Shown: positions 7,701-30,969, numbered from the stretch's first letter. The stretch is 48,658 nt of DNA from Nannocystales bacterium (GCA_050633305.1 JBOEGF010000067.1:1-48658), one strand, 5' to 3'. Translations and numbers: made by a program. Notes: generated by a model from the sequence alone, not told the origin.

Positions 7701-8931
7701 GCATGGCCTGCCGGAGCTGGCCGAGATGGCGCCGACGCGCCCGATCGACGTCCATGCTCCGGAGGAGTTTACGCCCGCCCCCCACGACCTCACGCCGCCC
7801 CCGCAGGATGTCGCGGCCGAGGACCACACGCCGCCGCCCCAAGAACTCAGCCTCGATGATGTTGGGCCACCCGAAGGCGGGCGCGCATCGTCGACGTCGA
7901 ACAACCGGGTCGCGCCGACGTATCCCGAGTTCAACGTCATCCCCGACTACGATCAGCCGCTGGAGTCAGACGGTGCTCCGTCGGGTCCGGAGCCCGCGCA
8001 GTCGGGAAACACAATCGTCGCTTCGTTCGAAGACCTTGGTCTCCCGGCACCCTCCTCGGACCCGGTCGCACGACCTGCGCCCTCTGCTCCGAGTGACTTC
8101 GCGGTGCTGCCGAGCTTCGGAGGTCCACAGATTGGCGCCGGATTCACGATGGTCGCCGCCTTCGATGCCGGGGAGGAGGCGGACGTGGGTGCCAGCAGCA
8201 CGATGATCGCGACCGCGGGCGACATTGAAGCGTGGCGGTCCGCGGGGGTCGCTTCGGCCGAGCCGCCGAGCGCGACGGATGCCATCGTTCCGCCTGAGTT
8301 CGAGGAAGAGCGGACTGGCATGTACACGCCCGCGCCGGGTTCGCTGCCTCCGCTTGCCCCCGCACCTCAGGTTCCGGTGGTTGGCGCTCCAGGCCTCCAA
8401 GACGAGGCGCTGACAGCCATGCGGGTGGGGCGTGATGCTCAGCCTACGGGCGCTGGGTTCGAGCTCAATCCTCGAGGTCCCGCGCCGGTTCCGGTGCCGT
8501 CCGACCCGACGGTCGCGGTTTCCGTGGGTGCGCCGGGTCCGTCTTCACGGGGTCAAACCAGCCTGGACAAAGGGGGGCGGCCCGGGCCTCCTCCCAAGCC
8601 GGTCGTCGCACCGCCGCCGCCCAAGCCCGATCCGTCCGCCGCGCCTCCGCTGCGAGGCAGTGGGTCTGTCGCGCCCGCTTCGCCGCCGACCGCCCGCCGT
8701 TCACTTGTGGAGGACGCCTTGGCGGACCTCAAACGCAAGACCGATTCGAGACGGAAGAAGCGCGAGACGCTCTCGCCCGTCGAGGAAAAGGCCCGGGCCC
8801 TGGCTGCGGAGAAGAAAGCCGCCAAACAGGAGCGTCGTCGTCGACGGCTGGGCAAGGCCGAGCTGGTCGACCCCGCGATCGCGGACCTGTACAAGGCCGC
8901 AATGACCGACCTGTCGCGTACGCGAGATTGA
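4735..8931 (+). CDS. PilZ-domain protein with ~1200-aa acidic Pro/Ala-rich extension
   Basis: N-terminal RRLPR (RxxxR) and DLSADG (DxSxxG) c-di-GMP motifs; the rest is low complexity with a basic helical C-terminus. Exact start uncertain. Confidence 0.8.
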   Translation: MMSFQLARLHTGNAVRVVNDRRRLPRVAWNGQAVIQTRRGEVRGVGLDLSADGMAVLAASPGKAKERVRVHMQLGEFPLLTDARVVRMTKRRDGYRWALRFDRMDERMRANLEAYVRQQLASAARVRQAQLYSQRLKGGALPTPPSATPPPTTLTPAPAGVPTPAPVDPRVRAGITLPPIEPKDLAVPGGGRGGQEPQEDSLDGLAEVLPQRPLEIELPSMAPGPDQPVLDIGDAPPTEQDVYVPYQSSSATDEAALLGEGPMTPAPESNPPAVAATPPPPPRQVERNPAEVLAPGVIEISDDEDLSLEDILAEVEAGGTLVPTGSTDTPVSDLQMPPKQDAAKVPTMGLGDVPVLDDDMGDEEETLARDSAPVARTVVKVDGAAAFVGTPQEPALDAALVADTPALDAGLSEDAPAMDAVLLEDAPALDAGLSEDAPAMDAVLLEDAPALDAGLSDDAPALLGAPMGTAPALDGALLDDTSAPLAEGLGAASGPSRDSAALALDAGPVGGGAALVGEPDDAAAALSGAPLHDGPALDSALLGDAPVLGTPPPEVVPVPSGAPLEEEPGLDAGLLQDAPALVGSPVEAAPALGDGLLDEAPALAGAPFSAAPPSARATLLPGARESSTSNSAPEFGGAPFSTSPPPGENSAEISLADLAPAMQRAAAHATEVATEPEPANPYATPPPSSPQPYIPVPADPEPAEPPVAREADAPLPSGVPTPPPSQGHASVQDTTPDEDEEFPEPPALLDPVDGTEPAPPAAPPSTTTLYADDAAPFDPYAPNPDPPAGAAKARLGSAPRALGELPPVVEGLYTPTSNPAIHEGSGAYQSASFEPFPSAEAGLYGGREDVTFEQQQGNPRQRLAVLQQDDKSTHKLAQQHDLFLGDIEGVTSGVDVPAVPAVPEPPQAPPPDAGADAGAEDLEHDAAADADELDFAELEEVLDAAEADAKQSAAAKSAVDGLAAARAEAEQLQAAVPDQELGANAPTSMHGLPELAEMAPTRPIDVHAPEEFTPAPHDLTPPPQDVAAEDHTPPPQELSLDDVGPPEGGRASSTSNNRVAPTYPEFNVIPDYDQPLESDGAPSGPEPAQSGNTIVASFEDLGLPAPSSDPVARPAPSAPSDFAVLPSFGGPQIGAGFTMVAAFDAGEEADVGASSTMIATAGDIEAWRSAGVASAEPPSATDAIVPPEFEEERTGMYTPAPGSLPPLAPAPQVPVVGAPGLQDEALTAMRVGRDAQPTGAGFELNPRGPAPVPVPSDPTVAVSVGAPGPSSRGQTSLDKGGRPGPPPKPVVAPPPPKPDPSAAPPLRGSGSVAPASPPTARRSLVEDALADLKRKTDSRRKKRETLSPVEEKARALAAEKKAAKQERRRRRLGKAELVDPAIADLYKAAMTDLSRTRD
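5911..6174 (+). repeat. In-frame tandem 33-nt (11-aa) repeats, DAPALDAGLSE/DAPAMDAVLLE
   Basis: Alternating 11-aa units form a 22-aa higher-order repeat; more degenerate copies continue to about 6560. Confidence 0.9.
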
Positions 8932-8936
8932 ACCTG

Positions 8937-10082
8937 ATGACCTACGATTTGATCGTGGTGGGGGCCGGACCCGCGGGGGCCGCCGCTGGGGTGACCGCGG
9001 CTCGTGCAGGGGCACGAGTGCTGGTGGTGGACCGAGCCACCTTCCCCAGGCCAAAGACATGCGGAGACGCGCTCTCGAACCGAGGCGCTGAGGTCGTCGA
9101 TCGCATCGTCGGTAAAAAGCACGCTCTGAGCCAGGTTCCGCACGCGGTCGTTCACGGTGCGGTCGCCGTATTTCCGGATGGCGCTCGGATCCGGCGCGGG
9201 TTCGGGGGACACGACGGATACATCGTGCCCAGGTACGCGCTCGACGGTCTGCTTCGTGCCCAGCTGGAAGGAGCCGGGGCCGAGGTTCGCGAGGGCGCTC
9301 GGGTTGAACGGCTGCTCTCGAGCGGTTCGGATATCGTCGGGGCCCAGGTCGAGGGGGAGCGACTGTTCTCCCGCGCTGTGATCGCCGCGGACGGTCCGGG
9401 ATCTGTGGGGTGGCGAGCGCTTGCCGTCCCCTACCGTCGCGGGCGAAGTCTTGCGGTGGCGATCACGGCGTACTACGAAGATGTGGATTTCGGGGAGGAC
9501 GTCGGCCGAACCGAGCACTACTTCGAGTCCGACCTTCGCAGCGGCTACGGCTGGGCGTTTCCTCCCGTGGAGGGCGAGTCGAATGTTGGCGTCTATCAAC
9601 GCTCCGATGCGTTTGAGCACGGCCCGCGAAAGCTCGGGGCTTGGCTCGAGGCGTTCGTCGAGCGTCACCCCGAGCGTTTTCACCGGGCTCGACGGGTTGG
9701 AAAGACCCGCACCTGGTCCCTTCCCCTCGCGATCCGGCCCGGTCCGCCCGGGGGTGCTGGCCTGCTTCTCGCCGGGGACGCCGCCAACAGCATCGATCCT
9801 CTGTCGGGTGAGGGAATCTGGCAGGCCCTCGACTCCGGGGAACTCGCGGCGCAAATCGTGCTCAAGGCGCTCGACAGCACAGGCCTCACGATGCGCTGGG
9901 TTCGGCAGTATCAGGCACAGTGGACCGCCCGCATCGGGACCACATCGATGGTCCGCCTGGGTATCCAGGACGCCATGGATCGCTTCATTGGGAGCGGTCT
10001 GTATCGTAGCGGACTCGCCCGCGGTTTGCTCAAACGCGCCTACTCCAGCGAGGCGTTCGAAGTGAGCAAGAAACTCAAGTAG
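8937..10082 (+). CDS. Geranylgeranyl reductase family FAD-dependent oxidoreductase
   Basis: GAGPAG dinucleotide motif, FPRPKTCGD, YIVPRYALD, AADG, GYGWAFP, GDAA..IDPLSGEGI. Confidence 0.88.
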   Translation: MTYDLIVVGAGPAGAAAGVTAARAGARVLVVDRATFPRPKTCGDALSNRGAEVVDRIVGKKHALSQVPHAVVHGAVAVFPDGARIRRGFGGHDGYIVPRYALDGLLRAQLEGAGAEVREGARVERLLSSGSDIVGAQVEGERLFSRAVIAADGPGSVGWRALAVPYRRGRSLAVAITAYYEDVDFGEDVGRTEHYFESDLRSGYGWAFPPVEGESNVGVYQRSDAFEHGPRKLGAWLEAFVERHPERFHRARRVGKTRTWSLPLAIRPGPPGGAGLLLAGDAANSIDPLSGEGIWQALDSGELAAQIVLKALDSTGLTMRWVRQYQAQWTARIGTTSMVRLGIQDAMDRFIGSGLYRSGLARGLLKRAYSSEAFEVSKKLK

Positions 10083-10092
10083 TGTCCCTGCG

Positions 10093-12000
10093 ATGAAGGC
10101 CCTCCGCACGCCTCGCGAGCGCACGCGCTTTGCGATCGCCGTGCTCGCCGTGTTGGCGATGCAGGTCGGGTTGTTCTTCTACTTTGGCGGCGCGTTCCTT
10201 TTTTCGGATGTGCCCTACGCCGGCCTCGATTTCGATACCCACATCACCCAGGCCTACCGCGTCGTGGAAGGCCTGGAAGGGTTCAACCGGACCTGGGTCT
10301 ACGATGTTCAGCTGCTCGCGGGCGCACCCAACGGGGTGATTTTCGACGCCGACAACAAGGGCTGGTCGTTGGTGACCTATGCGGGCAAGCAGCTCGGGCT
10401 CTCGCAGGGGTTCTCGTTCAACCTCTTCATCTTGGCCGCGCATGCCGGGGTGGTGCCTCTCGTCTATGCAGGGGCGCGTCTGCTTCGCGTTGGACCCTGG
10501 GGCTCTCTGCTCGCGGCCGCATTCGCGGTGTTGTACTGGAACTTCGATTCTTGGTCGCACTGGTGCTGGTACGTCGGCATGATCGCCTACGGCCTTGCGA
10601 GTCTCGTGTTCGTGCTTCCGCTGGGCTTCTTCTACCGTTGGTGTGACGAGCAGAAGCGTTGGCAACTCGCAGCCACGGCGGTCAGCCTCGCCCTGGCGCA
10701 CTTGGTGCACCCGTACACCTTCTTCATCCTCGCGTTCCCGATGCTCGCCTTGTACGTGAGGGCGTCTCCTTCGCTGCGGTGGCGAGGACACGTTGGCGTG
10801 TTGGGGGTCGTCGCCTGCGTTCTGCTGGTGAACGCCTATTGGCTGATCGATGCTGCACGGTTTTGGCACTACATCTTGGACTCGTCGCTGTTCGCGAACA
10901 CGGGCCCCAAGAGTGCCGTCTGGGACCTGCTCAACATTCTGGTCGAGCCCGCCGCAACCGGCATCATCGGCAAGCGCGCTGTCTTTCGCACGCTCGCGCT
11001 CCTCGGTGGCCTGAGCATGGCGGTCGTTTGGTGGCGGCGCGGCGACCCGCGTGCCCTCCCGCTGGGCGGCGGCCTGCTGACGCTGATCGTGTTCGGCTAT
11101 CTGGGAGGCTGGACACCGCTGGCCCAGACTCAGCCCTACCGTAACCTGCTACCCGGCGGTTTCCTCGGGTGCATCCTCACCGGGGCGTTGGTCGAGTTCG
11201 CGGTGAAGGAGCGGGTGTTTGCTCGGTTCAGCATCGGAGCCCGGTGGACCGTCGGGCTGGTCTCGGTGCCCGCGTCCATGCTGCTGGTTCACGAGGCGCT
11301 GTACTACTTCATCGACGACCTTCCCACGCCTGCGAAGCTTCCCCACGGCGAAGCCGCACAGCTCTCCGCGATGGGCTTTCCACAGCATGCGCCGTACGAC
11401 TACGGCGATTGGCACGTCGACCCGATCGCGGACTGGGTCCGAGAAAAGGATGACGGGACTGGGCGGTTTCTGGTCGAAGGCTGGAGCTGGGGCGAGCAGC
11501 TGGCTTGGAAGACCGACGCTCAGATCATGGGCGGGTTCATCTGGCGCAACATCCAGCACAGCTGGTCCAACTTCTTCCGTCGTCGCCCGCAAGGCATCGC
11601 GAGCCCGAAGGAGTGGCAGCAGTACCTCGACACCTATGCCATCCACTGGGTGATCGTCACCTCGCCCCGTCATGCGAGCCCCTGGTGGAATCATAACCCC
11701 ACGCTCGAGAAGGCGGCCGACCTTGGCGATTTCCGGGCGTATCGGGTCCGGAAGCCGACCGGATTCATCGAGCGTGGACCCGGCCGGGTGGATGCCTCGA
11801 CGAACCGGATCGAGGTCTACGGGACCGACCCCTCCCAGCCGGTCGTGCTCCGATATCACTGGCTGGAGACGCTGCGGTGCCTCCCCGACTGCACGATTGA
11901 GCGGGTCGAGGTGCCCGGGGATCCCGTGGGCTTCATTCGTGTGGCTCCGGGGCACCCCAAGGACTTCCTCGTGTTCAACAAGTACGCGTTTCCCAACTGA
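10093..12000 (+). CDS. Polytopic membrane protein, GT-C/YfhO-like glycosyltransferase candidate
   Basis: About 12 hydrophobic segments; acidic DFDTH motif in the loop after TM1; soluble C-terminal domain. Confidence 0.55.
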   Translation: MKALRTPRERTRFAIAVLAVLAMQVGLFFYFGGAFLFSDVPYAGLDFDTHITQAYRVVEGLEGFNRTWVYDVQLLAGAPNGVIFDADNKGWSLVTYAGKQLGLSQGFSFNLFILAAHAGVVPLVYAGARLLRVGPWGSLLAAAFAVLYWNFDSWSHWCWYVGMIAYGLASLVFVLPLGFFYRWCDEQKRWQLAATAVSLALAHLVHPYTFFILAFPMLALYVRASPSLRWRGHVGVLGVVACVLLVNAYWLIDAARFWHYILDSSLFANTGPKSAVWDLLNILVEPAATGIIGKRAVFRTLALLGGLSMAVVWWRRGDPRALPLGGGLLTLIVFGYLGGWTPLAQTQPYRNLLPGGFLGCILTGALVEFAVKERVFARFSIGARWTVGLVSVPASMLLVHEALYYFIDDLPTPAKLPHGEAAQLSAMGFPQHAPYDYGDWHVDPIADWVREKDDGTGRFLVEGWSWGEQLAWKTDAQIMGGFIWRNIQHSWSNFFRRRPQGIASPKEWQQYLDTYAIHWVIVTSPRHASPWWNHNPTLEKAADLGDFRAYRVRKPTGFIERGPGRVDASTNRIEVYGTDPSQPVVLRYHWLETLRCLPDCTIERVEVPGDPVGFIRVAPGHPKDFLVFNKYAFPN

Positions 12001-12033
12001 GCGCGGGTGTGTGACCATCGAGTCCCAGCCTCG

Positions 12034-12846
12034 ATGCGGGCCGAACTCAAGATCGCTGCAGACGTCGCCTGGTACCGGCTGCGACGGTTTGAGATGGCCA
12101 ACCTTGGCGCCGCCGGGGCGATCGCCGTGGCGCTGGCGCTGCCGTGGGGCGACGTGTTCGTGCGGCTCGCGTTCGGTGCCCTGCTGAACGTGTTGGTCTA
12201 CCTCAACAACGATTACCTCGATGTCGCCGAGGATGCCGCGTCGCCGACCAAGGACCGGACCAAGACGCGCTTTCTCGCGGAGCACCGCGGCGCAGCATTG
12301 CGGGCCCAGCTGGGTCTGCTGCTCGCCCTTGGGGTCGTCGCTTGGCTGTGGGGTGGGGGATTGGTCTGGCCGCTGCTGTTGGGCGGGGGCATCTGTTGGG
12401 CCTACTCCGCCGTGCTCAAGCACCGCCCGTTCGTCGACGTTGTCGCGATGATGGTCTGGGGCGTCACGATGCCGTGGGTCGCGGTGCCACCCGACTCGGC
12501 GCTCGGCTGGGCGCTGCTCCTACAGCTGGGACTCTTCTCCGGCGTGTTCGAGACCATTCAAGTCATGCGAGACCATGACGAAGACCGCGACACCGGGGTG
12601 CGCACCACTGCGGTCGCGTTGGGCTTGCCGCGGACCCGATGGCTGCTCAGAGGCCTCGTCGTGGCGGCGGGTGTCTATGCCGCGGTGACCTTCGGATGGT
12701 GGCTGGCGTTGTTGCCTTGGAGCGTGCTCCTGCTCCCGATCCCCAACCGAGACCTCTCCGGATACTGGAACCGCGTCCGCCTGCGTCTTGGCGCGACGCT
12801 GCTCATCGAGTGCGCCCTCGTGTATTTCGGCGCTGCGATCGGATGA
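12034..12846 (+). CDS. UbiA-superfamily prenyltransferase
   Basis: Asp-rich motifs NNDYLDVAED and RDHDEDRDTGVRT, YS...LK motif, multiple TM helices. Start at ATG12034 or GTG12007. Confidence 0.85.
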   Translation: MRAELKIAADVAWYRLRRFEMANLGAAGAIAVALALPWGDVFVRLAFGALLNVLVYLNNDYLDVAEDAASPTKDRTKTRFLAEHRGAALRAQLGLLLALGVVAWLWGGGLVWPLLLGGGICWAYSAVLKHRPFVDVVAMMVWGVTMPWVAVPPDSALGWALLLQLGLFSGVFETIQVMRDHDEDRDTGVRTTAVALGLPRTRWLLRGLVVAAGVYAAVTFGWWLALLPWSVLLLPIPNRDLSGYWNRVRLRLGATLLIECALVYFGAAIG

Positions 12847-14699
12847 CCCCACAACGTGCGCTGTCGGGGGCCCTCGCGGCCATCGCCGTCCTGTGCGGTG
12901 TCCTGTACATCCCGGGCCTGGACGCAGGGTTTCTCGCCGACGACTTGTTCCAGATCTCCATGCTGGAGAAGCGCATGGGTTCCTACTCGATCGCGCACTT
13001 GTACGCCTTTGCGCCCGGGGATGCGGCGACCAACGCTGCGCATGTACAGCGGGGCAGCCTTCCGTGGTGGACACACCCTGAGTTTCGTTTCGTGATGGTG
13101 CGGCCGTTGTCGAGCTTGCTGCTCTCGCTGGACCATTTCGTCTTCCCCAGGCAAGCGTTCGCGCACCACGTGCACTCCGCGGTGTGGTTTGCCGCCATGC
13201 TTGGCAGCGGCTACCTCCTGCTTCGCCGCCTGTTGGGGTCCTGGATTGCGGCGGTGGGCATCGGCTCGTTCGCGGTCGACGAAACCATGACCTGGATGGT
13301 CGCCTGGTTGGCCAACCGTTGCGCGCTGGTGTGCACGGTCTTCGCCTTCACCGCGCTGTGGGTTCACATCCGAAGTGCGCGCAACCCTGACGCATTCCGA
13401 GGCCGAGGACCGGTCGTGGAGCTGCTGCTGTGGCTCGGGGCGTTCGCGGGCGGCGAGTATGCCGTCGGCGGTGTCGCGTACCTCGGTGCCTTCATGTTGC
13501 TGGGTGACCGACGGGCCCCGAAGACGCGCATCCTCTCCATGTGGCCTGCTGCGGTCGCACTTCTCGCGTTCGTGACCGCGTACATCGTGCTCGGCGGGGG
13601 CGTGTACGGAGGCACAACCTATGTTGATCCGTTCCGAGAAACGGGGCAGTTCTTCCGCGTGATGGGGCATCGCGTCCCGCGGATGGCGGGTGAGGTGTGG
13701 TCCAACTGGGCCGGCGAGAGCGAGCGCTTCTGGATGCGGTATGCGGGCAGCGGGCTGAGCGAGCGGGTGATGCCCCCGGGGATCAAAGACCTCGGGACCC
13801 AGGCGTATCGCCACGCCGCATTCGCGATGGTGACCACGGCGGCATGGGTCGGCCCGGTGTGGTGGCTGGCACGCCGACATTGGACGCAAGACGAACGCCG
13901 AGCCGTACGCTGGCTGGTCCTGGGTTCATGTTTCGCCCTTCTGCCCATCTCCGCGATCCCCCCGGCGACCCGAGCCTTGATGCTGCCCAACTTCGGCGCT
14001 GCGGCGTTTGTGGGCGCATCCCTTGTCGCCACCGTTCGCGCCTGGAGGACGGGTGACTCGCGCTTCCGTCGGGCGGCGCTCACCGGGTTGGCGCTGCTCA
14101 TGGGCTGGCTGCATTTCGTCCGCGAGTTCGGCTACACCAGAGAGCACCTCGACGCGATCCTCGGAGCTCAGCGCGCCTACGCGCAGTTCTATCGCAACGA
14201 GGCTTTCGCGGCGCTCGACCTTCGCGACAAGCACGTGGTCGTGGTGGCGACTCCCGGACTCGTCACCGGGATTCACGGGGTGAGCATGATGCACGTGTTG
14301 GGCATGCAGGCGCCGAAGACGTGGCACGTGCTGGGGATCGGCCCGCGTCCGTACACCCTGCGCCGCGTCGCGAAGCGAAAGCTCGAACTCAGCAGTGTGG
14401 GCGGGGCGATGCACCACACGCCGCAGGAGATCCTCTTTCGCAATCCATACGACGCTCTGAAAAAGGGCGACCACGTGGAGGCGGGGCTGTTCAAGGCCAC
14501 AGTGCTCAACGACCGGAACGGATCCGGACCAGGGTCGGTCCTGTTCGAGTTCCTGTGGTCGCTCGATGACCCCAGGATCGTTGTGGTCGAAGTCGGTCCA
14601 ACCGGCCTCCGTCCGTTTTCTCTTCCGGCGGTCGGGAAGGTGGTCCCGGTCGCACCGCCTGCACTGCCCGAGAGCCCCGCGGCTGGACCGGTGGATTGA
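12843..14699 (+). CDS. Polytopic membrane protein, TMTC/PMT-like GT-C glycosyltransferase candidate
   Basis: ATGA overlap with the ubiA-like stop; FLADD after TM1, then RPLSS, HHVHS and WLANR, a pattern typical of GT-C/TMTC-like proteins. Confidence 0.6.
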   Translation: MTPQRALSGALAAIAVLCGVLYIPGLDAGFLADDLFQISMLEKRMGSYSIAHLYAFAPGDAATNAAHVQRGSLPWWTHPEFRFVMVRPLSSLLLSLDHFVFPRQAFAHHVHSAVWFAAMLGSGYLLLRRLLGSWIAAVGIGSFAVDETMTWMVAWLANRCALVCTVFAFTALWVHIRSARNPDAFRGRGPVVELLLWLGAFAGGEYAVGGVAYLGAFMLLGDRRAPKTRILSMWPAAVALLAFVTAYIVLGGGVYGGTTYVDPFRETGQFFRVMGHRVPRMAGEVWSNWAGESERFWMRYAGSGLSERVMPPGIKDLGTQAYRHAAFAMVTTAAWVGPVWWLARRHWTQDERRAVRWLVLGSCFALLPISAIPPATRALMLPNFGAAAFVGASLVATVRAWRTGDSRFRRAALTGLALLMGWLHFVREFGYTREHLDAILGAQRAYAQFYRNEAFAALDLRDKHVVVVATPGLVTGIHGVSMMHVLGMQAPKTWHVLGIGPRPYTLRRVAKRKLELSSVGGAMHHTPQEILFRNPYDALKKGDHVEAGLFKATVLNDRNGSGPGSVLFEFLWSLDDPRIVVVEVGPTGLRPFSLPAVGKVVPVAPPALPESPAAGPVD

Positions 14700-16252: not shown

Positions 16253-16350
16253 GCGCGTCCCGCGTGGGGAGCGTTCGGCAGCCCAGCCCGTTCTCGAGAA
16301 AATCGGGGAGCCTGGGAGACCCAATCGCGACCGGTCGCGTTGAAAGGCGT

Positions 16351-16824
16351 ATGCGACTGCCCGCTTCTGTTCTCGGCCCCCTGCGACTCGGTCTGGGTGC
16401 GACTGCGCTGTTGGCGGGTGGGTGCGATGCTCAGGAGACGCGGACGCTGGAACCGGCGACCGCAGCTGAGCCGGTCCGTGTGGTCCCCGCGGATGATGCG
16501 CCGCAGGTTGCCGCCGAGGTGGTTGCAGTGCTCGAGCGTGCCGCCGCGCAGGCGCCTGCACCGACCCGGCAGGCCGTACGGGAAGTCGCCGCGATCACGT
16601 CACCGCTCGTTGCCGAAGTGTCTGAGGACCTGACCGCGTTCGTCCCGTTCTCGGAGCAACCCGGTGACGCGAAGCCGATTCGGCCCCGCATCCGGACTCG
16701 TGTTCCGGCCCGGCCCCGTGTCGCATCGCGGCCGGTGGAAGTTGCGAGGCCCTGGAGCCCTCCAGAGGTCACGTCCACACCGAAATGGGATGGCGGCAAC
16801 TGCCCGGCGTGCGGTCGCGGCTAA
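16351..16824 (+). CDS. ChrA-like RiPP precursor with lipoprotein signal peptide and C-terminal CPACGRG core
   Basis: ATG16351 with GAAAGG upstream; lipobox LAGGC (Cys25); Ala/Pro/Arg-rich linker; ends CPACGRG (16801-16821); 12 nt upstream of a DUF692 gene. Confidence 0.8.
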   Translation: MRLPASVLGPLRLGLGATALLAGGCDAQETRTLEPATAAEPVRVVPADDAPQVAAEVVAVLERAAAQAPAPTRQAVREVAAITSPLVAEVSEDLTAFVPFSEQPGDAKPIRPRIRTRVPARPRVASRPVEVARPWSPPEVTSTPKWDGGNCPACGRG

Positions 16825-16836
16825 CATGGCGTTCGC

Positions 16837-17679
16837 ATGCAGGTCGGCCTCTCGTTGATGCTCGACGACGCGTTTCGACAGACGGCGCTGCCCCTGTTCG
16901 AAGCGGGAGTGGTCGACGCCATCGAGTACAGTTTTGAGCTTGGCTGGGCCGGGCCGCGCCCCTCGTGGGCAGAGGCGCTGCTGCGGCACTACGGAGGTGC
17001 GGGGCGACTGTGGGGACACGGTGTGACCTTTTCGCCGTTGAGTTCGGATGCCGCGGAGCACCACGCGGCGTGGCTGGCACGGGTGGCGCAGGAGTGTGCG
17101 GTTCTCGAGCTGCAGGGGCTCAGCGAGCACTATGGATTCATGGGAGCGGGCCATGACGACGTTGGGGCGCCACTTCCACCGCCTCCTCTACCCGAGGTCA
17201 CCGAGCTGGGGACGACGGCACTGGGCGCCCTGGCGGTCGCGAGCGGCGTCCCGGTGGGCATCGAGAACCTGGCCCTCGCGCTGAGCCCTCAGGACGTCTA
17301 CGCCCAACCGCGACTCATCGCGCAGATTCTGGACGCGCTGGATGGGTACCTCGTCCTCGACTTGCACAATCTGTGGTGCCAGGCGACCAACTTTGGGCTG
17401 GACCCGCTGACGCTACTGGGACGCTATCCACTGCATCGAGCTCGGGTCGTGCATCTCTCGGGTGGCTCGTGGTCGACCCACGCCACGACGCGGTTTCGCC
17501 GAGACACCCACGACGGCCAGGTGCCGGAGCCCGTGCTCGCGCTGCTGCCAGAGGCCCTGTCGCGTTGCTCCGATTTGCAGGCGGTGATCCTGGAGCAGCT
17601 TGGACCGAGTCTGGACGACCCGGGGGCCGCTCAGGGGTTCCGGGAAGACTTCGCCCGCGTCCGGGAGGTTTGCGCATGA
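16837..17679 (+). CDS. DUF692 family multinuclear non-heme iron-dependent oxidative enzyme (MNIO), ChrH-like
   Basis: Metal-ligand motifs GHG, SEHYGF, PLP, GIENLA, LDLHN, HLSGG, RRDTHD, ILE in the expected order. Confidence 0.9.
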   Translation: MQVGLSLMLDDAFRQTALPLFEAGVVDAIEYSFELGWAGPRPSWAEALLRHYGGAGRLWGHGVTFSPLSSDAAEHHAAWLARVAQECAVLELQGLSEHYGFMGAGHDDVGAPLPPPPLPEVTELGTTALGALAVASGVPVGIENLALALSPQDVYAQPRLIAQILDALDGYLVLDLHNLWCQATNFGLDPLTLLGRYPLHRARVVHLSGGSWSTHATTRFRRDTHDGQVPEPVLALLPEALSRCSDLQAVILEQLGPSLDDPGAAQGFREDFARVREVCA

Positions 17680-17867
17680 GCGCGCTCGCGCATTACCAAC
17701 GACGGCTTTCGAGGCTACTGCTCAAGGGCCACAGCCCCGAGTCCATTCGCCAGGCCCTGCTGGAGGACCCCGCATTGGAGTCGCTGCACGGCTACATAGA
17801 GAGCCTCCAGGATGCACCGCTCGAGGTTGCGGTCGAGCTGGCAGCCAAGTGGGGCCGCCCGCTATAG
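17676..17867 (+). CDS. 63-aa helical protein coupled to the MNIO (partner or split C-terminal domain)
   Basis: ATGA overlap with the MNIO stop, GGAGG RBS upstream; MSALAHYQRRLSRLL...EVAVELAAKWGRPL. Confidence 0.7.
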   Translation: MSALAHYQRRLSRLLLKGHSPESIRQALLEDPALESLHGYIESLQDAPLEVAVELAAKWGRPL

Positions 17868-23002: not shown

Positions 23003-23322
23003 CGGCTCGCCACGTCAGCCCCGTGCGTTCGCGGCTCTTGTCGTTGTCAAGTTTCCAATCCGCCGAGGGACAGGTGTCACTATGAGCAGAGAGCCAGACC
23101 GTTGTCTCGCACACTCCTAAAGACCTGTTGTCCTCTTGGGACGTATGCAAGCACTTCTGTGTTGACACTGCCGGAGGACACCCGTATCCGTACGTTGTCC
23201 AGGCTGGACCATGTCCGTGCGGAGTGCACGGCCGCGTGAGCCTCCCTGCCGCTGGCGATGCTTTCCATCTCCCCAGGCGGTTTTCGGTGTGCGCACAACT
23301 CAGCCGGGCTCAGGAGGATCCC

Positions 23323-26300
23323 ATGACCACCAGAAAACTCGGAAGATCTGCCGTTGCGGCGCTTTGCTCGCTTACTCTCGTCTCTGCATCGTGCGGCGGC
23401 TCGGGCGGGGGTGGTGCGCAAGACCTTGAGATCGAGGGCGGCACAGAGCTACGAACCGTAGTGGGAGACTGGCTGCCTGAGCTCGTTCAGCTTCGGTACG
23501 ATGTCCCAGATTTCGATGACTCTGCCGCAGTCGGCGCGCTCCCGGCACGATCGTGGGTGGACGATGGCGGGGGGGCTCACTACGCGATTCCGCTTGACGT
23601 GGCTCCCGGGCCTGCCGGCTACGCACCGTCGCTGAGCCTCAGTTACTCCAGCCAGGGAGGAAACGGAACGTTCGGAGTCGGGTTCTCCGTGGCAGGCACG
23701 GCGATGGTGACTCGGTGCCAGCGCAATCTCGCCAAGGACGCCTACTACGAAGCATTGACCTTGGGAGTGGAGGACCCGATCTGCTACGGAGGCGAGCGCC
23801 TTGTGCTCTGGCAAGGGACCTACGGAGCCCCCGGGTCGACCTATCGGCTGGAGTCCGACCCCTCCAAGAGGTTCAGCTACAAAGGGCATCTCGACGAGCC
23901 GCAAGAAGGCGTGCAGTGGTGGATGACGACCGCCGGAGGCGAGGTCTACACATTCCGAGGGATGGGCGGGGCGCTCGACCGTTGGCCGCTCGTCGAACGG
24001 AGTGACGAGGCAGGAAACCGGATCTCCTACGCTTGGTCAGTACTCCCGGACAACGAGGTGGTCCTCTCCGAGATCAGGTACGGCGGTACGGGCACGCCGG
24101 ACTCCACGCGAAAGGTCATCTTCAACTATCAGGACGAGGACCGGTCCGATGCTCGCGAGGGCTATGTCCGCGGTGACCTCTATCGACGGACTCAGCTGGC
24201 GAATGAAGTTCGGGTCGAGGCCCCTCACGGTGAGCTGCTCACCCGGTACGAGCTGGAGTACGAGCTTCACCCGCACTCACTTCAGAGCATCCTAAAAAGC
24301 GTGACGAAGTTCGACGCGCAGGGGGTGGCGCTGCCCGCCACTGAGTTCGACTGGACTGTTGCCGACGCTCCGCCGCTCGCGGAGGGGGCGATTGGCGCGG
24401 TGGACTCGGACGTGGTGCACCCCAGTTTCACGCCATCGAAACTGCGGCGGAGCCAAAGGCTTCTCGTGGGCGATTTCGAGGGCGATCAAAACGACGAGGT
24501 GTTGGCCTACCATCCCGACGACGAAGACGAGCACGACGCCAGCTTTAAGCTTCACGGCGTCGTGTCCGGGCACGCGGTCGATGTGTTCTTCCCGACCTCC
24601 ACGATGCCCGAGGCCTGGGAGCCGCCGACGCCGCCGTATCCCTACCTCTGCGGAAATGGCGTTCTCGACCCTGGCGAATCGTGCGACGGGCAGACGCTCA
24701 GTCCGTCGTGCTTGGACCTAAACTCCTCAGGTACGGCGATGTGCAGCGATTCTTGTCAGTTTGACTACAGCCTGTGCGCAAGCTGTGAGTCGTCGTCTGC
24801 CGCCCACTGTGAGCCTCCGGCGCCCCCGGTATTCGAGCCGATCACCCTCACCAATCTGCATCGGGTCCGACCTCCCCTCGGGCTCATGAACATCAACTAC
24901 GCCCACAATGATCGCCGCAGCAACCTGCTCATGCCGCACGCCAACGGCGAGGGCGTAGACGAGTGGGGGATCCCTTGGGCAGACCGGCTCGCCGTCTTCG
25001 AGATGTACAACGACCCCTCGGACGCGTGGCAGCAAGGAACTTCGGTGATCTTCTCAGCCCTCGGCGGAAACCCCACCGCCGCTCCGGTGTACTCGGTCGT
25101 CCCACTAGAGTTCAACGGGGACGGACGTGACGATCTGTTTCTCTGCCAGGGCTACGGCTACAAGACCTCTCGGTGGCATCTCGCGCTGAGCAAGGACGTT
25201 GTCGAGTCAGGCGAACTCGGATGGGACTTCTATGATACTGGCGTCGGCTGCTCTACCCACGATGAGACAACGATCCTCCCCCATCCGCGTGGAACCGAGG
25301 TGCTTGCAGTCATTCAGAGGTTCCCGACAAGTTTGCAGGACTATCCTGTCGGCTTCGACGACCCGGAAGACTATTGGGCTAGCGTCTTGCCGATCGCCGA
25401 AGAGGATCGCGGGGGATACCGGGTTCTGGACTTCGACCCCGCGACAGGCGTGGGAGCTCTCTCAGAAGAAGTCCTACCGCGAGATCTCTACCAGAGATGG
25501 TCGGACCTCAACTGCAACAACGGGTACATTGCTGCAGGTCTGGGGGAGCCTTCGTTGGGCGTGGGGGCCCCTTTGTTGGGGGCGGGACTCAGTCGAGACC
25601 TGCAGATCGACCTACACGGCGACGGACACCGGGACGTCGTTCGGTTCGAAGTTGAAGGCGGCGACGACTTCTCCAACTTCGCGGCGATTCATTTCGAGAA
25701 TTACGACACCGGGGCTGGCTTTACCTATGAACCATCGTGTGTGGACGGGTACCAGGAAGGGATCCTCCGTGTATACCGCAACACTGGCGAAGGGTATGTC
25801 GCGGCAGAGGAACCTGCCTTCGTGTTCCCAGGGCTAGCGCACGAAAACCTGTTCCTCAACTGGTACGGCGCTCAGACCGTCGACTGGAACGGAGACGGCT
25901 TGACGGACATCTTGCTCCCCTCTGACGGGGTCCCGGATGATCCCGACGCCCCGACACAGGACGAGGATTGGACGGTTTTGCTCTCCAACGGGGACGGTGA
26001 GTTCACGCCGCTGGATGTACAAAACGGCGTCGCTTGGCCGCACTACATCGAGGGAGCGGGAACGGCGGCCAACGCTGATACGTTCGAGAACACACGTGTC
26101 CTCTCGCTCCGCTCGGGCTCCCGTGTCAAGCAGCTCTTCGTGCGCTCGGGCCAGCCAACGCAGGACTGGTCCTCTGCACAACGTGGAAAGGGCGCTCTGC
26201 TAGAGCGCGCGACCGACGGTCAAGGACTGGAGCATAGCTTCTCCATGGTCCGGACGGGTAGCGGATACGTGGTTCGGAGCCGGGCCGTCAACACGCCTGG

Positions 26301-29300
26301 AACCGGCGTCCCTTATGACCTTCCTTCGAACACCCGCACGTGGAGCTACGAGTACTCGGATCCTGTCCGCGACCGCTACGGCATGCGCGATATCGGGTTT
26401 GCCTGGGTTCGAGAGACGTTCCTCGGCGAGCGCAACGGGTTCCCGTGGAGTCGTAGTACGCAGCTCCGCACCTACGACCGAACCTACGACGCTGGGTTGA
26501 GGGACTACCCTCGCTCTCGACAACCCACCCGTGTCGAAACCGCGTGGGTATCCGACGACGGCGACCCTGAGGAAGAATGGCACATTCAGTGTTCGCGGGT
26601 GGATGAGTGGAAGGTTGAGGTCCAGGCCCTTCCCGGCGGCGATATCTGGCAGGCGTATCCGGCTTACACCGAGTCCTTCTCGGCCGCTCTTCCGGCGTCG
26701 GAATACAACCGGCTGAGCCCGGGACACGAGTCGGGGCCAGGCCCGGACGGGCAATGCGACGACATCTCAGAGTGGTCCTACCTGACTCACTCGACAGCAG
26801 AAGTCGAGCGCGACGACTTTGGCAACGTCGAGTTCTCTCGAACGGCCGTGCTGCGCGGGGTGAGCGAGGAAACGGCAACCGAGACGGTCTACAGCGACTT
26901 CGACTACGACGTCGGCAACTGGATCGTCGCGGCTCCGCAGTCCGTTGTAACCACAAGCTACGTAGGCCCGACGGACCAAAAAACGCGAGAAGTCGCCATC
27001 GAGTACCAGCCAGCGTCGAACATGGTGGCTTCGGTGACGCGTGAACCTGCGACTCCAGAGGAGCAAACGACAACGTTCGGCTACGAGAGTCACGGCAACG
27101 TCAACCTCACCGTTGTCTCCACCCCCACGCAGGGCTCTCGATCCATGTCGATGGTTTGGGACGCGGAGGGCGTGGTGCCGATCAGCCAGACGAACGATCT
27201 TGGGCAGGTCACCAACCTGGTCTTCCATAGTGGAACAGGCTTGCCAGTCGCCACGGTCGACGCGAATGGACTGACCCAGAAGGCCACGTACGACGGGTTC
27301 TTCCGGCCTACCGGAAGTTCGTTCCACAGTTCTCCATTGGGCCCGAGTGATGGCGCAGACGCGTCCGTAGAGTATCAGGCGAGTCTGGTAGACGGCGCAG
27401 TCCTCGACGTTGTCGCAGGGGCCCAAGGCCAGGAAACACGGACATCGTACGACCGTGCAGGTCGTGTGGTCCGGGAACTGTGGCACGGGGTCGCGAGCGT
27501 TGCGGCCGACGTCGAGTTTCCCGTCAGCCCCGCTCTCGAGGGCCCGGAGGTCTGCCGCTGGTATGAGTACAGCTTCCACGGCCAGGTGCTCCGCACGAGT
27601 GAGGCCACGGCGTCGTGCGGGAGCCCGCCGACTTCGACGGAGGCCTGGAGCCGGAACGAGTTCGACAACGGCGGCCGTCTCCTCTCGACGCACTGGTACG
27701 ACGACGAGGCTGGCCTGGAGGTCGAATCCTCCGTCGAGCACCTCGACATCCAGTGGGTTGGGGATATCAGCGGCGAGGTCCCGACTCCTCAGGGTGCTGC
27801 TGTCGTGATGCGGGACCCCGAGAACCACCCCACAACGCGGGTGGTCGACGCGCTCGGTCGGGTCAGCGCCAGCGTCGATGCGCTGGGTGTCATGACCTGC
27901 TTCGACTACGGCCCGTTTGGGGAGGTCGACGCGGTCCATCGAAACTGCGGCGTCAACCCTCAGGGCCCCGTCGAAGTCTCGACCTATGGCTACGACAGCC
28001 TCTCGCGACTCGTCACGTCGACCGAGCCTGCCAATGGCACTCAGATCCTCTCGTACACAGAGTTCGACGAGCTCGATATCGCGCTCGACCCCAAGGGCCA
28101 GATCCTAGACCACGACTACGATTCGCTCGGACGCATGACGTTCCAGCACTCCACTGTAGATGGCACGTCGAGCTGGACGTACGACGATGGACTCGTGGGC
28201 GCGCTCGTCGAGCAGGAAAGCGCGGACGGTGTCCGCCAAACGTTCGAGTACGACGAGTTCGGTCGCCCAGAGAAAACCCGTCACTACATGCCCAGCCTCG
28301 AGTCCCCGGGCATGTGGGAGGTCGATTCGAGCACCGCTTGGCTGTTTTCGTACAACTATGATGGTCTTGGCAGGCTCTCGGACATCGTCTATCCGACCAC
28401 GAACGCGAAGGTTGGCAACGACCTGCCCGGTGAGGTCAGCCCTGTCCAGAAAACGTTCGCGGCCACATTCCAATACGACGGCTCGAACAACCTGCGCTCG
28501 ATTGCCGGTGCGGGGCGTATCCTGTGGGCACTCGACGACGCGAATGAGGCAGGCTTGCCACTGATCGAGCGGTTCAACGACGGAATCACCGGATCAGCGT
28601 CGCAGTCAAAAAGCACTCGGTATCAGCCGCTCACAAACAGGGTGCTCGAGATCGGAGTGGAGGCCGCGAACGCGCCGGTCCAAAACTTTGTCTACGAATG
28701 GACACCTTCCGGAGACCTGCACCGACGGGAAGAAGGGACCACCGGACAGTCGGAGACGTTCGGCTACGACGCCCTACACCGCCTAACCGGCCAAGACGGC
28801 GGCACCGCGGCGACCTATGATGCCCTGGGGAACATCACGAGCCGCCCTGGCGTCGGCAACTACGAGTACGACGCAGATACCGGCCATCTGAGTTGGTACG
28901 GCTGGTCGGGCAACACGGTGCCGCACGACGCCAACGGAAACGTTGAGCAGCTCGGAAACGTCGGTATCACCTGGTCCGCGCTCGACAAGGTTCGGACCTT
29001 GTCGAGCGGTGGCCAAACGTCCTCGTTCGTCTACGACGCAACGGGTGCTCGGTCCCTGCGACATGGCGAAGACGGCTACACGATGACCATCGGGGGCCTG
29101 TTCGAGCTTTCGGACCAGCCCGGCGCCAAGCTCAACTCGCGCGACACCAAGGCGCGGTACTTCGTGCCCGTGGGCGGCTCGGTCGTCGAGGTCCGCGACC
29201 AGCTTCTCTCGAGCCCGGACACGCCTGGGAAATGGAAGCGCGAGGTGTTCTACCAGTACAACGATCACCTCGGCTCGGGCTCACTGCTGGTGAACGAGGA

Positions 29301-30969
29301 CGGGGATGTCGAGGAAGCTGTCTCGTATGGCCCGTGGGGCGAGGCCCGCGCCTGGGAAGACTGGACGCTGGATGCCACCCCAGAGGAGTTGCAGAACTTG
29401 GCCTCTGGGTTCACGGGGCACCAGCCCGAGTTGGATATGGGGCTGATCAACATGCGGGGGCGGATGTACTCCCCAGTGCTGGCTCGGTTCTTGAGCGTGG
29501 ACCCGGTGATCGAGTCGGCTGCGGATGCGCAGACTTGGAATGCGTATAGTTATGTTTCGAACAACCCGCTGCGGTATGTGGATCCTTCGGGGCTCTGTCG
29601 AGAAGCGACAGACTGGAGCGAGCCGAAAGACAACGGGCACGGAACTATTAACCGCTGGAGGACCGATGGCAGTGACTGTGACAGGGGCAGCGTTCCTCAG
29701 GAGGTTCCCCCACAGGACACCGGACCGTCGGGAGGTTCGACGGGAACGGGCGATACTGGCGGCGGTGGTGGCAGGTCCGGGGCGGGCGGAAACTCGGAGA
29801 GCCCCAACGGCGCAGGCCAGGGCGGCCCGAGCTATGAGGAACTCCGCTATATCGATAATACCTGGCCCATAGTGGCGGTTCACGACGCCGTATGGCGGGT
29901 CGGGGAGGAGAACAGACGCCGGAGAGAGCCGGGAGCGTGGGATAGTGTGACGGCAAAGCTCGGAGGCTACGTCGATTGGATGGTTGGAGAGTCCACGGGG
30001 GGGGGCTTGTCCGTGGTGGGCAGCCCGTGGGTCCTGCTCGGACTACTCGGGTTCGCCGACAAGCAGTCTAGTACCTTCGAAACCGCCGAGACGGTTGGGG
30101 TGGGCATGTCGCTGGCTGTCGGGGCCGGGGAGTTCAGCTACGGAGCTTGGCGGTTCGGCGCCAACTACTTTGGACGACAGGCAATTCGTACCCTGCGACC
30201 TGCTTGTTTCGCCGGAGGTACGTTGGTTCACACGGAGGAAGGCCTAATACCTATCGAGGACGTCAAGGTCGGCGACCTCGTTTGGACCAGAGACGAGCAA
30301 ACTGGTCGGAGTTCGCTACGCCCCGTCAAGAGGGTGTTCGTCACCTCCGATCGGAAACTCCTCGAACTCACTCTCGAAGGCGACGGCGATATTAGAGAAC
30401 GGATTCGGACTACGGCGGAACATCCGTTCTGGACGAGGGGCGGTGGGTGGGTTGCAGCTGCGCAACTCGGTCTGGGTGACGAAGTCTTACAGCGCTCGGG
30501 CGGTTGGCTCCGAGTCGGGGCGGCGACCTGGGAGCAGGAACGTGCTGTTGTCTACAACTTAGAGGTGGATGAGTTCCACACGTACTTCGTCGGAAAGCAC
30601 GGGGCGTGGGTCCACAATGAATGCATCCAGATTGCGCTCGGCCTGGACATCCCCGGGGCGGGGATGAAGGCGCTTGCGCAGCAAACGGGTGCCTCTTGGT
30701 GGAGATTCTGGGAAAGTGCTGGCGTCACGCGGAGGGTTGTCCAGCGTAACTTCGGACGAGCCTTCCACCAAGCCGTGAAGCGGGCTGATCGAATTCACTT
30801 CTCGCTGGACGGAATCGCGAATCCCGCGGCGGCAGCGCGTGCAGGCGCAAGCGGGTTCACTATCGGGAATATGACCAACGCAGAGCTCCGCTACATCGCA
30901 AGCAACCCGGACATCTTGGCCAAGACTGTCTTCTACCGTGGTGGTAAGATCGTCCCGTCGCCGTTCTGA
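23323..30969 (+). CDS. TcB/SpvB-FG-GAP-RHS/YD-repeat polymorphic toxin with pretoxin HINT domain and C-terminal toxin
   Basis: ATG23323 with AGGAGG RBS; SpvB-like YAIPLDVAPG...PSLSLSYSS.GGNG; FG-GAP motifs (GDFEGD, DWNGDG); YD repeats; Rhs core end NPLRYVDPSG (DPSG at 29581); HINT from CFAGGT (30205) to VHN (30618). Confidence 0.93.
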   Translation: MTTRKLGRSAVAALCSLTLVSASCGGSGGGGAQDLEIEGGTELRTVVGDWLPELVQLRYDVPDFDDSAAVGALPARSWVDDGGGAHYAIPLDVAPGPAGYAPSLSLSYSSQGGNGTFGVGFSVAGTAMVTRCQRNLAKDAYYEALTLGVEDPICYGGERLVLWQGTYGAPGSTYRLESDPSKRFSYKGHLDEPQEGVQWWMTTAGGEVYTFRGMGGALDRWPLVERSDEAGNRISYAWSVLPDNEVVLSEIRYGGTGTPDSTRKVIFNYQDEDRSDAREGYVRGDLYRRTQLANEVRVEAPHGELLTRYELEYELHPHSLQSILKSVTKFDAQGVALPATEFDWTVADAPPLAEGAIGAVDSDVVHPSFTPSKLRRSQRLLVGDFEGDQNDEVLAYHPDDEDEHDASFKLHGVVSGHAVDVFFPTSTMPEAWEPPTPPYPYLCGNGVLDPGESCDGQTLSPSCLDLNSSGTAMCSDSCQFDYSLCASCESSSAAHCEPPAPPVFEPITLTNLHRVRPPLGLMNINYAHNDRRSNLLMPHANGEGVDEWGIPWADRLAVFEMYNDPSDAWQQGTSVIFSALGGNPTAAPVYSVVPLEFNGDGRDDLFLCQGYGYKTSRWHLALSKDVVESGELGWDFYDTGVGCSTHDETTILPHPRGTEVLAVIQRFPTSLQDYPVGFDDPEDYWASVLPIAEEDRGGYRVLDFDPATGVGALSEEVLPRDLYQRWSDLNCNNGYIAAGLGEPSLGVGAPLLGAGLSRDLQIDLHGDGHRDVVRFEVEGGDDFSNFAAIHFENYDTGAGFTYEPSCVDGYQEGILRVYRNTGEGYVAAEEPAFVFPGLAHENLFLNWYGAQTVDWNGDGLTDILLPSDGVPDDPDAPTQDEDWTVLLSNGDGEFTPLDVQNGVAWPHYIEGAGTAANADTFENTRVLSLRSGSRVKQLFVRSGQPTQDWSSAQRGKGALLERATDGQGLEHSFSMVRTGSGYVVRSRAVNTPGTGVPYDLPSNTRTWSYEYSDPVRDRYGMRDIGFAWVRETFLGERNGFPWSRSTQLRTYDRTYDAGLRDYPRSRQPTRVETAWVSDDGDPEEEWHIQCSRVDEWKVEVQALPGGDIWQAYPAYTESFSAALPASEYNRLSPGHESGPGPDGQCDDISEWSYLTHSTAEVERDDFGNVEFSRTAVLRGVSEETATETVYSDFDYDVGNWIVAAPQSVVTTSYVGPTDQKTREVAIEYQPASNMVASVTREPATPEEQTTTFGYESHGNVNLTVVSTPTQGSRSMSMVWDAEGVVPISQTNDLGQVTNLVFHSGTGLPVATVDANGLTQKATYDGFFRPTGSSFHSSPLGPSDGADASVEYQASLVDGAVLDVVAGAQGQETRTSYDRAGRVVRELWHGVASVAADVEFPVSPALEGPEVCRWYEYSFHGQVLRTSEATASCGSPPTSTEAWSRNEFDNGGRLLSTHWYDDEAGLEVESSVEHLDIQWVGDISGEVPTPQGAAVVMRDPENHPTTRVVDALGRVSASVDALGVMTCFDYGPFGEVDAVHRNCGVNPQGPVEVSTYGYDSLSRLVTSTEPANGTQILSYTEFDELDIALDPKGQILDHDYDSLGRMTFQHSTVDGTSSWTYDDGLVGALVEQESADGVRQTFEYDEFGRPEKTRHYMPSLESPGMWEVDSSTAWLFSYNYDGLGRLSDIVYPTTNAKVGNDLPGEVSPVQKTFAATFQYDGSNNLRSIAGAGRILWALDDANEAGLPLIERFNDGITGSASQSKSTRYQPLTNRVLEIGVEAANAPVQNFVYEWTPSGDLHRREEGTTGQSETFGYDALHRLTGQDGGTAATYDALGNITSRPGVGNYEYDADTGHLSWYGWSGNTVPHDANGNVEQLGNVGITWSALDKVRTLSSGGQTSSFVYDATGARSLRHGEDGYTMTIGGLFELSDQPGAKLNSRDTKARYFVPVGGSVVEVRDQLLSSPDTPGKWKREVFYQYNDHLGSGSLLVNEDGDVEEAVSYGPWGEARAWEDWTLDATPEELQNLASGFTGHQPELDMGLINMRGRMYSPVLARFLSVDPVIESAADAQTWNAYSYVSNNPLRYVDPSGLCREATDWSEPKDNGHGTINRWRTDGSDCDRGSVPQEVPPQDTGPSGGSTGTGDTGGGGGRSGAGGNSESPNGAGQGGPSYEELRYIDNTWPIVAVHDAVWRVGEENRRRREPGAWDSVTAKLGGYVDWMVGESTGGGLSVVGSPWVLLGLLGFADKQSSTFETAETVGVGMSLAVGAGEFSYGAWRFGANYFGRQAIRTLRPACFAGGTLVHTEEGLIPIEDVKVGDLVWTRDEQTGRSSLRPVKRVFVTSDRKLLELTLEGDGDIRERIRTTAEHPFWTRGGGWVAAAQLGLGDEVLQRSGGWLRVGAATWEQERAVVYNLEVDEFHTYFVGKHGAWVHNECIQIALGLDIPGAGMKALAQQTGASWWRFWESAGVTRRVVQRNFGRAFHQAVKRADRIHFSLDGIANPAAAARAGASGFTIGNMTNAELRYIASNPDILAKTVFYRGGKIVPSPF

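Follow-up and report, generated by a model that had tools for sequence, protein, structure and literature searches.

The window, a 48,658-nt stretch of Nannocystales DNA, carries a three-gene cassette that we read, with good confidence, as making a DAG-RiPP with a two-subunit enzyme and a lipid-anchored product, probably within an envelope-stress response under an ECF sigma factor. For a role in envelope-stress display, taken by itself and with the biosynthetic reading granted, we see about an even chance. DAG-RiPPs have been named as the combination of a lipoprotein precursor and an MNIO of the ChrH/DybH subfamily, in which the same work places Myxococcota (PMC13056109, PNAS 2026), and the central idea of the cassette, a lipid-anchored ChrH-type product, is already published as this class. 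An arginine core, a stalk of 116 to 149 residues, a near-invariant signal peptide, and an ECF-like motif are undescribed in the main texts, and the supplements may list such clusters; "CGRG," "Nannocyst," and "promoter" have 0 occurrences in the main text of the preprint PMC12636315.

The locus and its enzyme

The cassette lies on the plus strand and comprises the following features:

16317..16341, plus strand: predicted ECF-sigma-like promoter motif (AGACC at 16317-16321, 16 nt, CGTT at 16338-16341)
16351..16824, plus strand: precursor gene, 157 aa, predicted prolipoprotein and MNIO substrate
16351..16425, plus strand: predicted SPII signal peptide with lipidated Cys25, from conservation and a pattern rule
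16426..16800, plus strand: low-complexity stalk of 125 residues, acidic by the anchor and basic by the tip
16801..16821, plus strand: core CPACGRG (Cys151, Cys154), predicted macrocycle and hydantoin site
16837..17679, plus strand: MNIO catalytic TIM-barrel subunit, 280 aa, assigned to the ChrH/DybH subfamily (PF05114, NF050165)
17676..17867, plus strand: 63-aa gene, MelHc-like by phmmer, read as the C-terminal helical domain of the enzyme encoded separately

Twelve nucleotides separate the precursor from the MNIO gene, whose stop codon overlaps the start of the 63-aa ORF (ATGA). In the precursor, Cys25 is preceded by L-A-G-G and the C-terminal end is CPACGRG. This three-ORF layout, the lipobox, and the terminal motif had been described in the sequence-only reading and proved exact when the ORFs were reinspected. 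We place the start at the ATG at 16351 because all 14 long precursors aligned (14 of 14) show homology from its Met onward and because the conserved upstream motif ends 9 nt before it; on the same two observations we rejected a TTG start at 16249, which would give 191 aa. A terminal CPxCGxG is expected by chance 0.12 times among the 144,716 stop-to-stop ORFs of the genome. CxxCGxG ends no more than 3 residues from the ORF end in seven of them, of which one, the precursor, looks by eye like a real gene, and this genome-wide scan for the terminal motif found no further substrates for the enzyme. Neither a transporter nor a protease is present within the three-gene unit.

The MNIO matches PF05114 (E = 1e-21) and, at 230 bits, the ChrH model NF050165 (model positions 4 to 281 of 363; cutoff, 600), with the other MNIO family models scoring 64.5 (BufB), 47, and 38 bits. 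Two Chryseobacterium proteins pass the 600-bit cutoff (P0182 at 692 and P0203 at 654 bits), and Bacteroidota relatives from Chitinophaga (P0207, 378 bits) and Paraflavitalea (394 and 395 bits) also fall below it, which indicates that NF050165 marks chryseobasin in the strict sense. We built a quick tree of 74 rows, covering de-duplicated loci of near-full length, 8 named proteins from Bacteroidota, and 5 further MNIOs of the genome; loci that were partial or broken are omitted, and the outgroup branches are long. In this tree the window enzyme forms one clade with the Chryseobacterium equivalogs and the Bacteroidota DybH-like enzymes (SH-aLRT, 99). The five other MNIOs of the genome fall outside this clade, and an own-family clade of 29 rows includes the window enzyme with a support of 95. 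With NF050165 as its best match, the enzyme falls where it had been expected, in the ChrH cluster. It is 37 to 42% identical to the 8 named Bacteroidota enzymes, and the closest named relative, locus L001 of a Nannocystaceae genome, is 81% identical, which makes Nannocystaceae the likely family of the host.

Residues H61, H98, D175, H206, D223, and H225 are invariant across 104 homologs and align, through the Bacteroidota homologs, with the DybH-numbered positions H65, H102, D179, H210, D228, and H230; DybH has six mutation-tested iron ligands (PMC13733907). The predicted fold (pLDDT 94.9) has TglH and MbnB as its top Foldseek matches, and a search of solved structures gave no ChrH sequence. 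As judged from its sequence, the window enzyme is a ChrH/DybH-subfamily MNIO with all six tested iron ligands. The cassette is not a chryseobasin cluster in the strict sense, since the enzyme stays below the NF050165 cutoff, the precursor has no match to NF050124 at an E of 0.1, and no match to ChrI (DUF1772), the ChrE epimerase, or the ChrP M42 peptidase was found among the 11 window proteins scanned. ChrI has been described as dispensable (PMC13056109). The features of bufferins and oxazolins (BufB/HvfB-type enzyme, DUF2063 partner, Cys-rich or EGKCG precursor) are not found in the cassette either. Six further PF05114 matches in the genome are located on contigs C7, C11, C15, C32, and C38 (L041 to L045 and L047), among them the bufferin maturase of the genome (L041), over its cutoff and apart from the cassette, and a tandem pair of divergent matches on C38.

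The 63-aa ORF is no ChrI-type partner; it is homologous to the C terminus of fused enzymes. Compared by phmmer with the last 60 residues of fused homologs, it matched P0049 (9e-13), P0070 (8e-12), and P0065 (3e-11), with 5 of 15 long proteins at E < 1e-4 and the others weaker. P0049, a fused homolog with 58% identity, carries the name Paraliomyxa miuraensis in its source record. A small-ORF profile, built from the same candidates in which it was counted, matches after 51 of 51 short MNIO loci (those whose end is complete and followed by 250 nt of sequence, duplicates included) and inside 27 of 30 long MNIOs; the window ORF alone recovers 47 of 52 matches. The profile also matches the C termini of Chitinophaga, Fibrella, and Larkinella enzymes (E of 2e-7 to 2e-8) and, weakly, those of Chryseobacterium (5e-4 to 0.1). 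Since the ORF is homologous to the C termini of fused enzymes and since split and fused forms alternate on the tree, we identify it as a MelHc-type domain, i.e., by homology, the helical C-terminal domain of the enzyme, split off into a gene of its own. It has no Pfam or NCBIfam match over cutoff and its Atlas result was uninformative; on the family scans, together with the homology, we rejected a ChrI/DUF1772, DUF2063, or RRE partner. MelH is inactive without its separately encoded MelHc (PMC13056109), and by analogy the small subunit would bind the barrel and be needed for activity.

No neighbor is kept across genera among the contexts listed (at least 21), as assessed by clustering and by eye. 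Upstream, at window positions 8928-14699 (plus strand), a gene of the geranylgeranyl-reductase family, one for a 635-aa membrane protein, one for a UbiA prenyltransferase, and one for a membrane protein weakly resembling PMT_2 form a run, possibly a lipid-linked glycosylation unit. The run is syntenic within genus g1 only, and these genes and a 518-aa lipoprotein were rejected as parts of the cassette because they are kept only there. Positions 23128-30969 (plus strand) hold a 2613-aa ORF that, by eye, we take to resemble an RHS/YD-repeat protein; an intein-like domain seems to be present, and the C-terminal tip looks variable.

Precursor, core motif, and predicted product

A lipoprotein-type precursor and lipid-anchored display had both been proposed from the sequence, and both are supported. 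The window precursor and 20 of 24 clade precursors satisfy a PROSITE-type lipoprotein pattern, on which, with conservation, the SPII call rests; Cys25 and Gly24 are invariant in 14 of 14 long precursors, and lipidation has been shown for DybA (PMC13056109). The window precursor is thus predicted to be a DAG-RiPP-type SPII lipoprotein, with the lipobox Cys on the MNIO substrate itself. The genome encodes Lgt (4 matches over cutoff), LspA (3), and Lnt (2). Model NF050125 (ChrA_rel_RiPP) is weakly matched by 12 of 14 long precursors, the window one at E = 0.0011 over residues 1 to 31 (19.7 bits; cutoff, 40). The Asp at +2 was considered as a signal for retention in the inner membrane and rejected, since 172 of the 851 lipoproteins crudely predicted in the genome have it; in Myxococcus xanthus, the retention signals reported are Lys+2 and Ala+7 (PMC3222651).

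Inside genus g1, the signal peptide is 88 to 96% identical, and among 7 orthologs codons 2 to 25 carry 6 to 13 synonymous versus 1 to 3 nonsynonymous differences, while 2 to 5 core codons are changed with all residues kept. The three most distant g1 loci have signals 88 to 92% identical though their enzymes are only 62 to 67% identical; at the same loci the signals of two neighboring lipoproteins, a control from which the mismatched row L096 was removed, are 40 to 73% and 50 to 62% identical. The hydrophobicity of the h-region is only moderate, with a Kyte-Doolittle mean of 1.7 for the best 11 residues, and an invariant Arg12 interrupts it, both of which count against the lipoprotein reading. 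A role as obligatory leader is weakened by the fact that DybH modifies GFP bearing only the motif and that the bufferin signal is dispensable. Since DybH needs no leader, the conservation of the signal peptide calls for another explanation, and our guess is a delay of export.

The linker (residues 26 to 150) is 125 aa long and, in a 123-residue count, contains 23 Ala, 18 Pro, 17 Val, 13 Arg, and 11 Glu. Residues 26 to 100 have 5 K/R and 12 D/E, versus 10 K/R and 5 D/E in residues 101 to 150. Its identity in g1 is 20 to 57% over residues 27 to 87 and 46 to 93% over the better kept segment, residues 88 to 115, and the Atlas model of the precursor has a pLDDT of 0.51 and a pTM of 0.22. From lipobox Cys to core, stalks measure 116 to 149 residues in genera g1, g2, and g15, and 54 to 95 residues in g17 where the rule found a Cys.

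As expected beforehand, the CPACG tail is conserved in syntenic homologs, with Cys151, Cys154, Gly155, Arg156, and Gly157 invariant in 14 of 14 long precursors. CPxCGxG is the motif modified by DybH, ChsH, HymH, and MelH/Hc (PMC13056109). The Met-to-Arg change in the core, pointed out in the sequence-only reading, is a real difference from ChrA but is not special to this locus, as 24 of the 57 distinct two-Cys cores that we collected have Arg at the Met position, some of them from Bacteroidota and Planctomycetota. Arg and Met cores are adjacent in tandem precursors of one cluster (L014, L015), which suggests that one enzyme handles both. HymH accepts Leu at this position (PMC13056109), and DybH tolerates ring changes, the seven-residue motif on GFP being sufficient (PMC12636315).

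DybH alone turns DybA, an SPII ChrA-like precursor, into a macrocycle-hydantoin of -4 Da that carries no methyl group, and MS showed DybA to be triacylated in E. coli (PMC13056109). By analogy, the likely product here is a triacylated lipoprotein of 133 residues that bears the same unmethylated -4 Da macrocycle-hydantoin; the amide nitrogen of the Arg at core position 6 is predicted to enter the hydantoin. The three genes would be transcribed as one unit. In the cytoplasm, going by the DybH and MelH work, Cys154 would undergo four-electron oxidation to a thioaldehyde, its carbonyl would bridge the amide nitrogens of Gly155 and Arg156 to form the hydantoin, and Cys151 would close the thioether macrocycle, leaving one free thiol and a mass change of -4 Da; ring closure is the last step in the published mechanism (PMC13733907). 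Sec export, addition of diacylglyceryl to Cys25 by Lgt, cleavage after Gly24 by LspA, and N-acylation by Lnt would follow, giving a mature 133-residue triacylated lipoprotein that holds the ring on a 125-residue stalk in the membrane.

A thiomethyl group, named earlier for the ChrA product, is unlikely because most homologs yield the unmethylated -4 Da product (PMC13056109) and because methylation can be spontaneous with SAM, ChrH and DybH having no SAM-binding domain (PMC13733907). More broadly, the Arg core could give another product (S-methylated, noncyclized, or unmodified), or the precursor could be exported through an SPI signal without a lipid. ArlA/ArlH, the one myxobacterial pair tested, gives a mix of methylated and unmethylated products in E. 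coli (PMC13056109), the window enzyme is only 37 to 42% identical to its Bacteroidota homologs, and many collected relatives have no lipobox Cys; set against the spontaneous methylation, the invariance of Cys25 and of both core Cys, and the tandem Arg and Met cores, this makes such an outcome very unlikely in our estimate.

The stalk could also be a carrier from which a periplasmic or surface protease clips off the macrocyclic peptide as a diffusible signal or antibiotic. A Trp is present 1 to 5 residues ahead of the core in 24 of 24 clade precursors listed, and genes for known or presumed peptidases lie nearby in two genera. Two genes upstream of the cassette, three g15 genomes have a divergent gene for a prolyl oligopeptidase (PF02897, PF00326) whose start resembles that of a lipoprotein (L101:1948-4251 and its counterparts in L100 and L103). 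In genus g1 the cassette is followed, in convergent orientation, by a DUF885 lipoprotein gene that has the motif HExxPGH and presumably encodes a peptidase. The g15 gene echoes a Spirosoma cluster (PMC13056109). However, both neighbors are on the opposite strand, genus limited, and compatible with ordinary synteny, the unit itself has no transporter or protease, and a lipid anchor would be unneeded for simple release, so that clipping seems quite unlikely to us.

Among known systems, DybA/DybH of Dyadobacter crusticola (PMC13056109) shares with the cassette an SPII-type signal, the extra conserved Cys, a C-terminal CPxCGxG, and a ChrH-subfamily MNIO directly downstream, with no ChrI or dedicated transporter. 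It differs in that DybA-like precursors collected are 55 to 66 aa long rather than 157 and have Met instead of Arg in the core, whereas here the enzyme is in two genes, the host belongs to Myxococcota, and an ECF-like motif lies upstream. MelA1/MelH/MelHc of Melainabacteria (PMC13056109) has, like the cassette, barrel and helical domain on adjacent genes and a large precursor with a terminal motif, but MelA1 is a folded 34-kDa TPR protein with an SPI signal and CPACGMG, in place of a low-complexity stalk and a predicted lipid anchor. The chryseobasin system ChrA/ChrH(I) (PMC10214503) has the same enzyme subfamily, iron ligands, and two-Cys core, but ChrA has an SPI signal and ChrI, ChrE, and ChrP are present; here there is none, and S-methylation would not be expected. 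ArlA/ArlH of Archangium (PMC13056109) is likewise a Myxococcota member of the subfamily, active in E. coli, but the CPACGMMM of ArlA is embedded in a small peptide, in contrast to a terminal core on a long lipoprotein.

Upstream motif and candidate functions

Alignment of upstream DNA gave the consensus AGA[CT]C-N16/17-CGT[TA], 8 to 13 nt ahead of the ATG, a layout that we take to resemble ECF promoters. In patterns derived from the same sequences in which they were counted, the strict motif precedes 14 of 24 clade precursors and the loose motif 24 of 24 (shuffled mean, 0.04), and outside the clade the loose motif precedes 1 of 14. With a matrix trained on 13 orthologs and the window left out, the window site ranks third of 38,210 candidate starts in the genome, behind an unnamed lipoprotein gene and a serpin lipoprotein gene (G000). 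The motif is also found before the unnamed-lipoprotein family in G004 and G001 and, in G065, before the cytochrome-c-like lipoprotein that shares its operon; such an MNIO was not found in G001 or G065 by the family genome search. The best-scoring copy belongs to an operon (G000:C14:362328-365183; L110:2329-5184) of two paralogous unnamed lipoproteins and a 451-aa, cytochrome-c-like lipoprotein with two CxxCH, conserved with its motif in G004, G001, and G065. We found no sigma-70 site upstream of the precursor and no Shine-Dalgarno enrichment (3 of 24 versus 2.7 shuffled), and the mRNA is likely near-leaderless.

The regulon is to be taken as small and tentative, since genome-wide a 16-nt spacing of the strict motif is not commoner than one of 13 or 19, 1 of 600 random 500-nt windows beats the window site (19.1 versus 18.6), and no self-regulated or cognate ECF gene was identified among 150 scored. 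The best cognate candidate was dropped because its motif match falls inside a coding region. Many other pattern matches precede no plausible gene.

The same chemistry and anchor could instead serve a copper-buffering metallophore, and copper binding had been suggested for the locus before. Bufferins (BufABC, PMC11626156) are MNIO modified, Sec exported, sometimes lipidated, and ECF controlled, as is predicted for the product here; bufferins and oxazolins are copper-linked MNIO products, some of them lipidated, with bufferin clusters under an ECF sigma factor (PMC11626156, PMC13056109). In addition, the predicted product has a free thiol, and a putative substrate in the relative L159 carries PF11617. 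But bufferins have a different enzyme family, a DUF2063 partner, thiooxazole chemistry, and a shown copper role, the genome has its separate bufferin maturase, and no copper gene was recognized in the contexts listed. PMC13056109 states that the function of every ChrH/DybH-type product is unknown. Motif scores are 5.3 to 8.0 before four P1B-type ATPase and two multicopper-oxidase genes and 0.9 to 7.2 before five other MNIO matches, i.e., near the background median of 5.3, compared with 18.6 for the cassette, which argues against copper coregulation. Since the motif is found at envelope lipoprotein genes and not at the copper genes checked, copper binding finds no support in the neighbors, the motif scores, or the enzyme family, and we hold this alternative to be unlikely.

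The weakest links of the envelope-stress reading would be that the motif acts as a promoter and that the ring is a ligand-binding or thiol-reactive head, kept at a distance from the membrane, that protects the envelope. A more specific version would join three elements: a dedicated Nannocystaceae ECF regulon that displays an Arg macrocycle-hydantoin on a 12- to 15-kDa stalk across the envelope, a ring whose role is to bind an anionic target in the wall or to trap damaging electrophiles, and a near-invariant, weakly hydrophobic signal that delays export until the tip is modified. Taken jointly, these are improbable.

Distribution and relatives

Of the 72 genomes of the host family, 23 gave a match to the enzyme (4 of 17 genera), as did 12 of 401 more widely sampled genomes; in these counts kin are nonindependent and many genomes incomplete. 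A precursor accompanies it in 22 of the 23, directly upstream in 21 and displaced by a phosphoesterase gene in G047; in G069 the enzyme is present and no precursor was seen. Sixteen of the 22 precursors end in CxxCGRG and six in CxxCGMG, and the enzymes of the 23 genomes are split in 20 cases and fused in 3. Precursors of relatives reach 163 to 181 aa in several cases, outside the 50 to 160 aa to which published mining was limited (PMC13056109); the 157 aa of the window precursor are inside. Acidimicrobiales, which are Actinomycetota, have ChrH-type clusters with CPACGMG or CPPCGLG precursors (L013, L017, L019, L022 to L024, and L032), and the main text of PMC13056109 names Gram-negative phyla only.

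Several relatives have single-Cys cores in which the second Cys is kept: L161:874-1455 (G421), L163:981-1466 (G466), L037:3318-3962, L038:3588-3995, L072:193-744, L030:3050-3646, and L056:2656-2979. Their endings include PPPCGRG, MAACGRG, AAACGRG, MIECGMG, MVDCGMG, and FPPCSFG; L161 has two tandem lipoprotein-like precursors of this kind, and the iron ligands are intact at all loci save L072, where the enzyme is broken or cut. DybA without its first Cys gives a hydantoin, with a reactive intermediate trapped by glutathione (PMC13733907), which suggests that single-Cys precursors may give natural noncyclic or thiol-trapping products. Such clusters were not found in literature searches on this enzyme subfamily.

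A Polyangiaceae locus (L020:1963-2250) encodes an NHLP-leader precursor (TIGR03793, 64.4 bits; cutoff, 50.9) ending in CYSCGAG. After 19 nt it is followed by a ChrH-type enzyme in split form, which scores 293 bits and has its MNIO starting at 2273 and its small subunit at 3108-3350. This substrate bears a leader and no signal peptide, in a subfamily described as leader independent. L159:2351-3836 (G339) has two tandem candidate substrates ending in CGGG with a second Cys about 10 residues earlier, one of which carries the putative metal-binding motif PF11617, and L057:437-1054 is a lipoprotein-like ORF ending in MRCGKG with a Cys 14 residues earlier; the substrates of both loci could give larger rings. 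Compared with the window, the single-Cys and NHLP-leader relatives are more distant from the published motif.

If the joint reading of an ECF regulon and an Arg-tipped stalk is true, it would provide the first regulatory handle on the function of chryseobasin-type products. The lineage offers a conserved promoter-like motif, which bears on when the product may be made and with which genes, and a natural Arg variant at a position predicted to enter the hydantoin, and its long stalk tests how a C-terminal modification outruns export.
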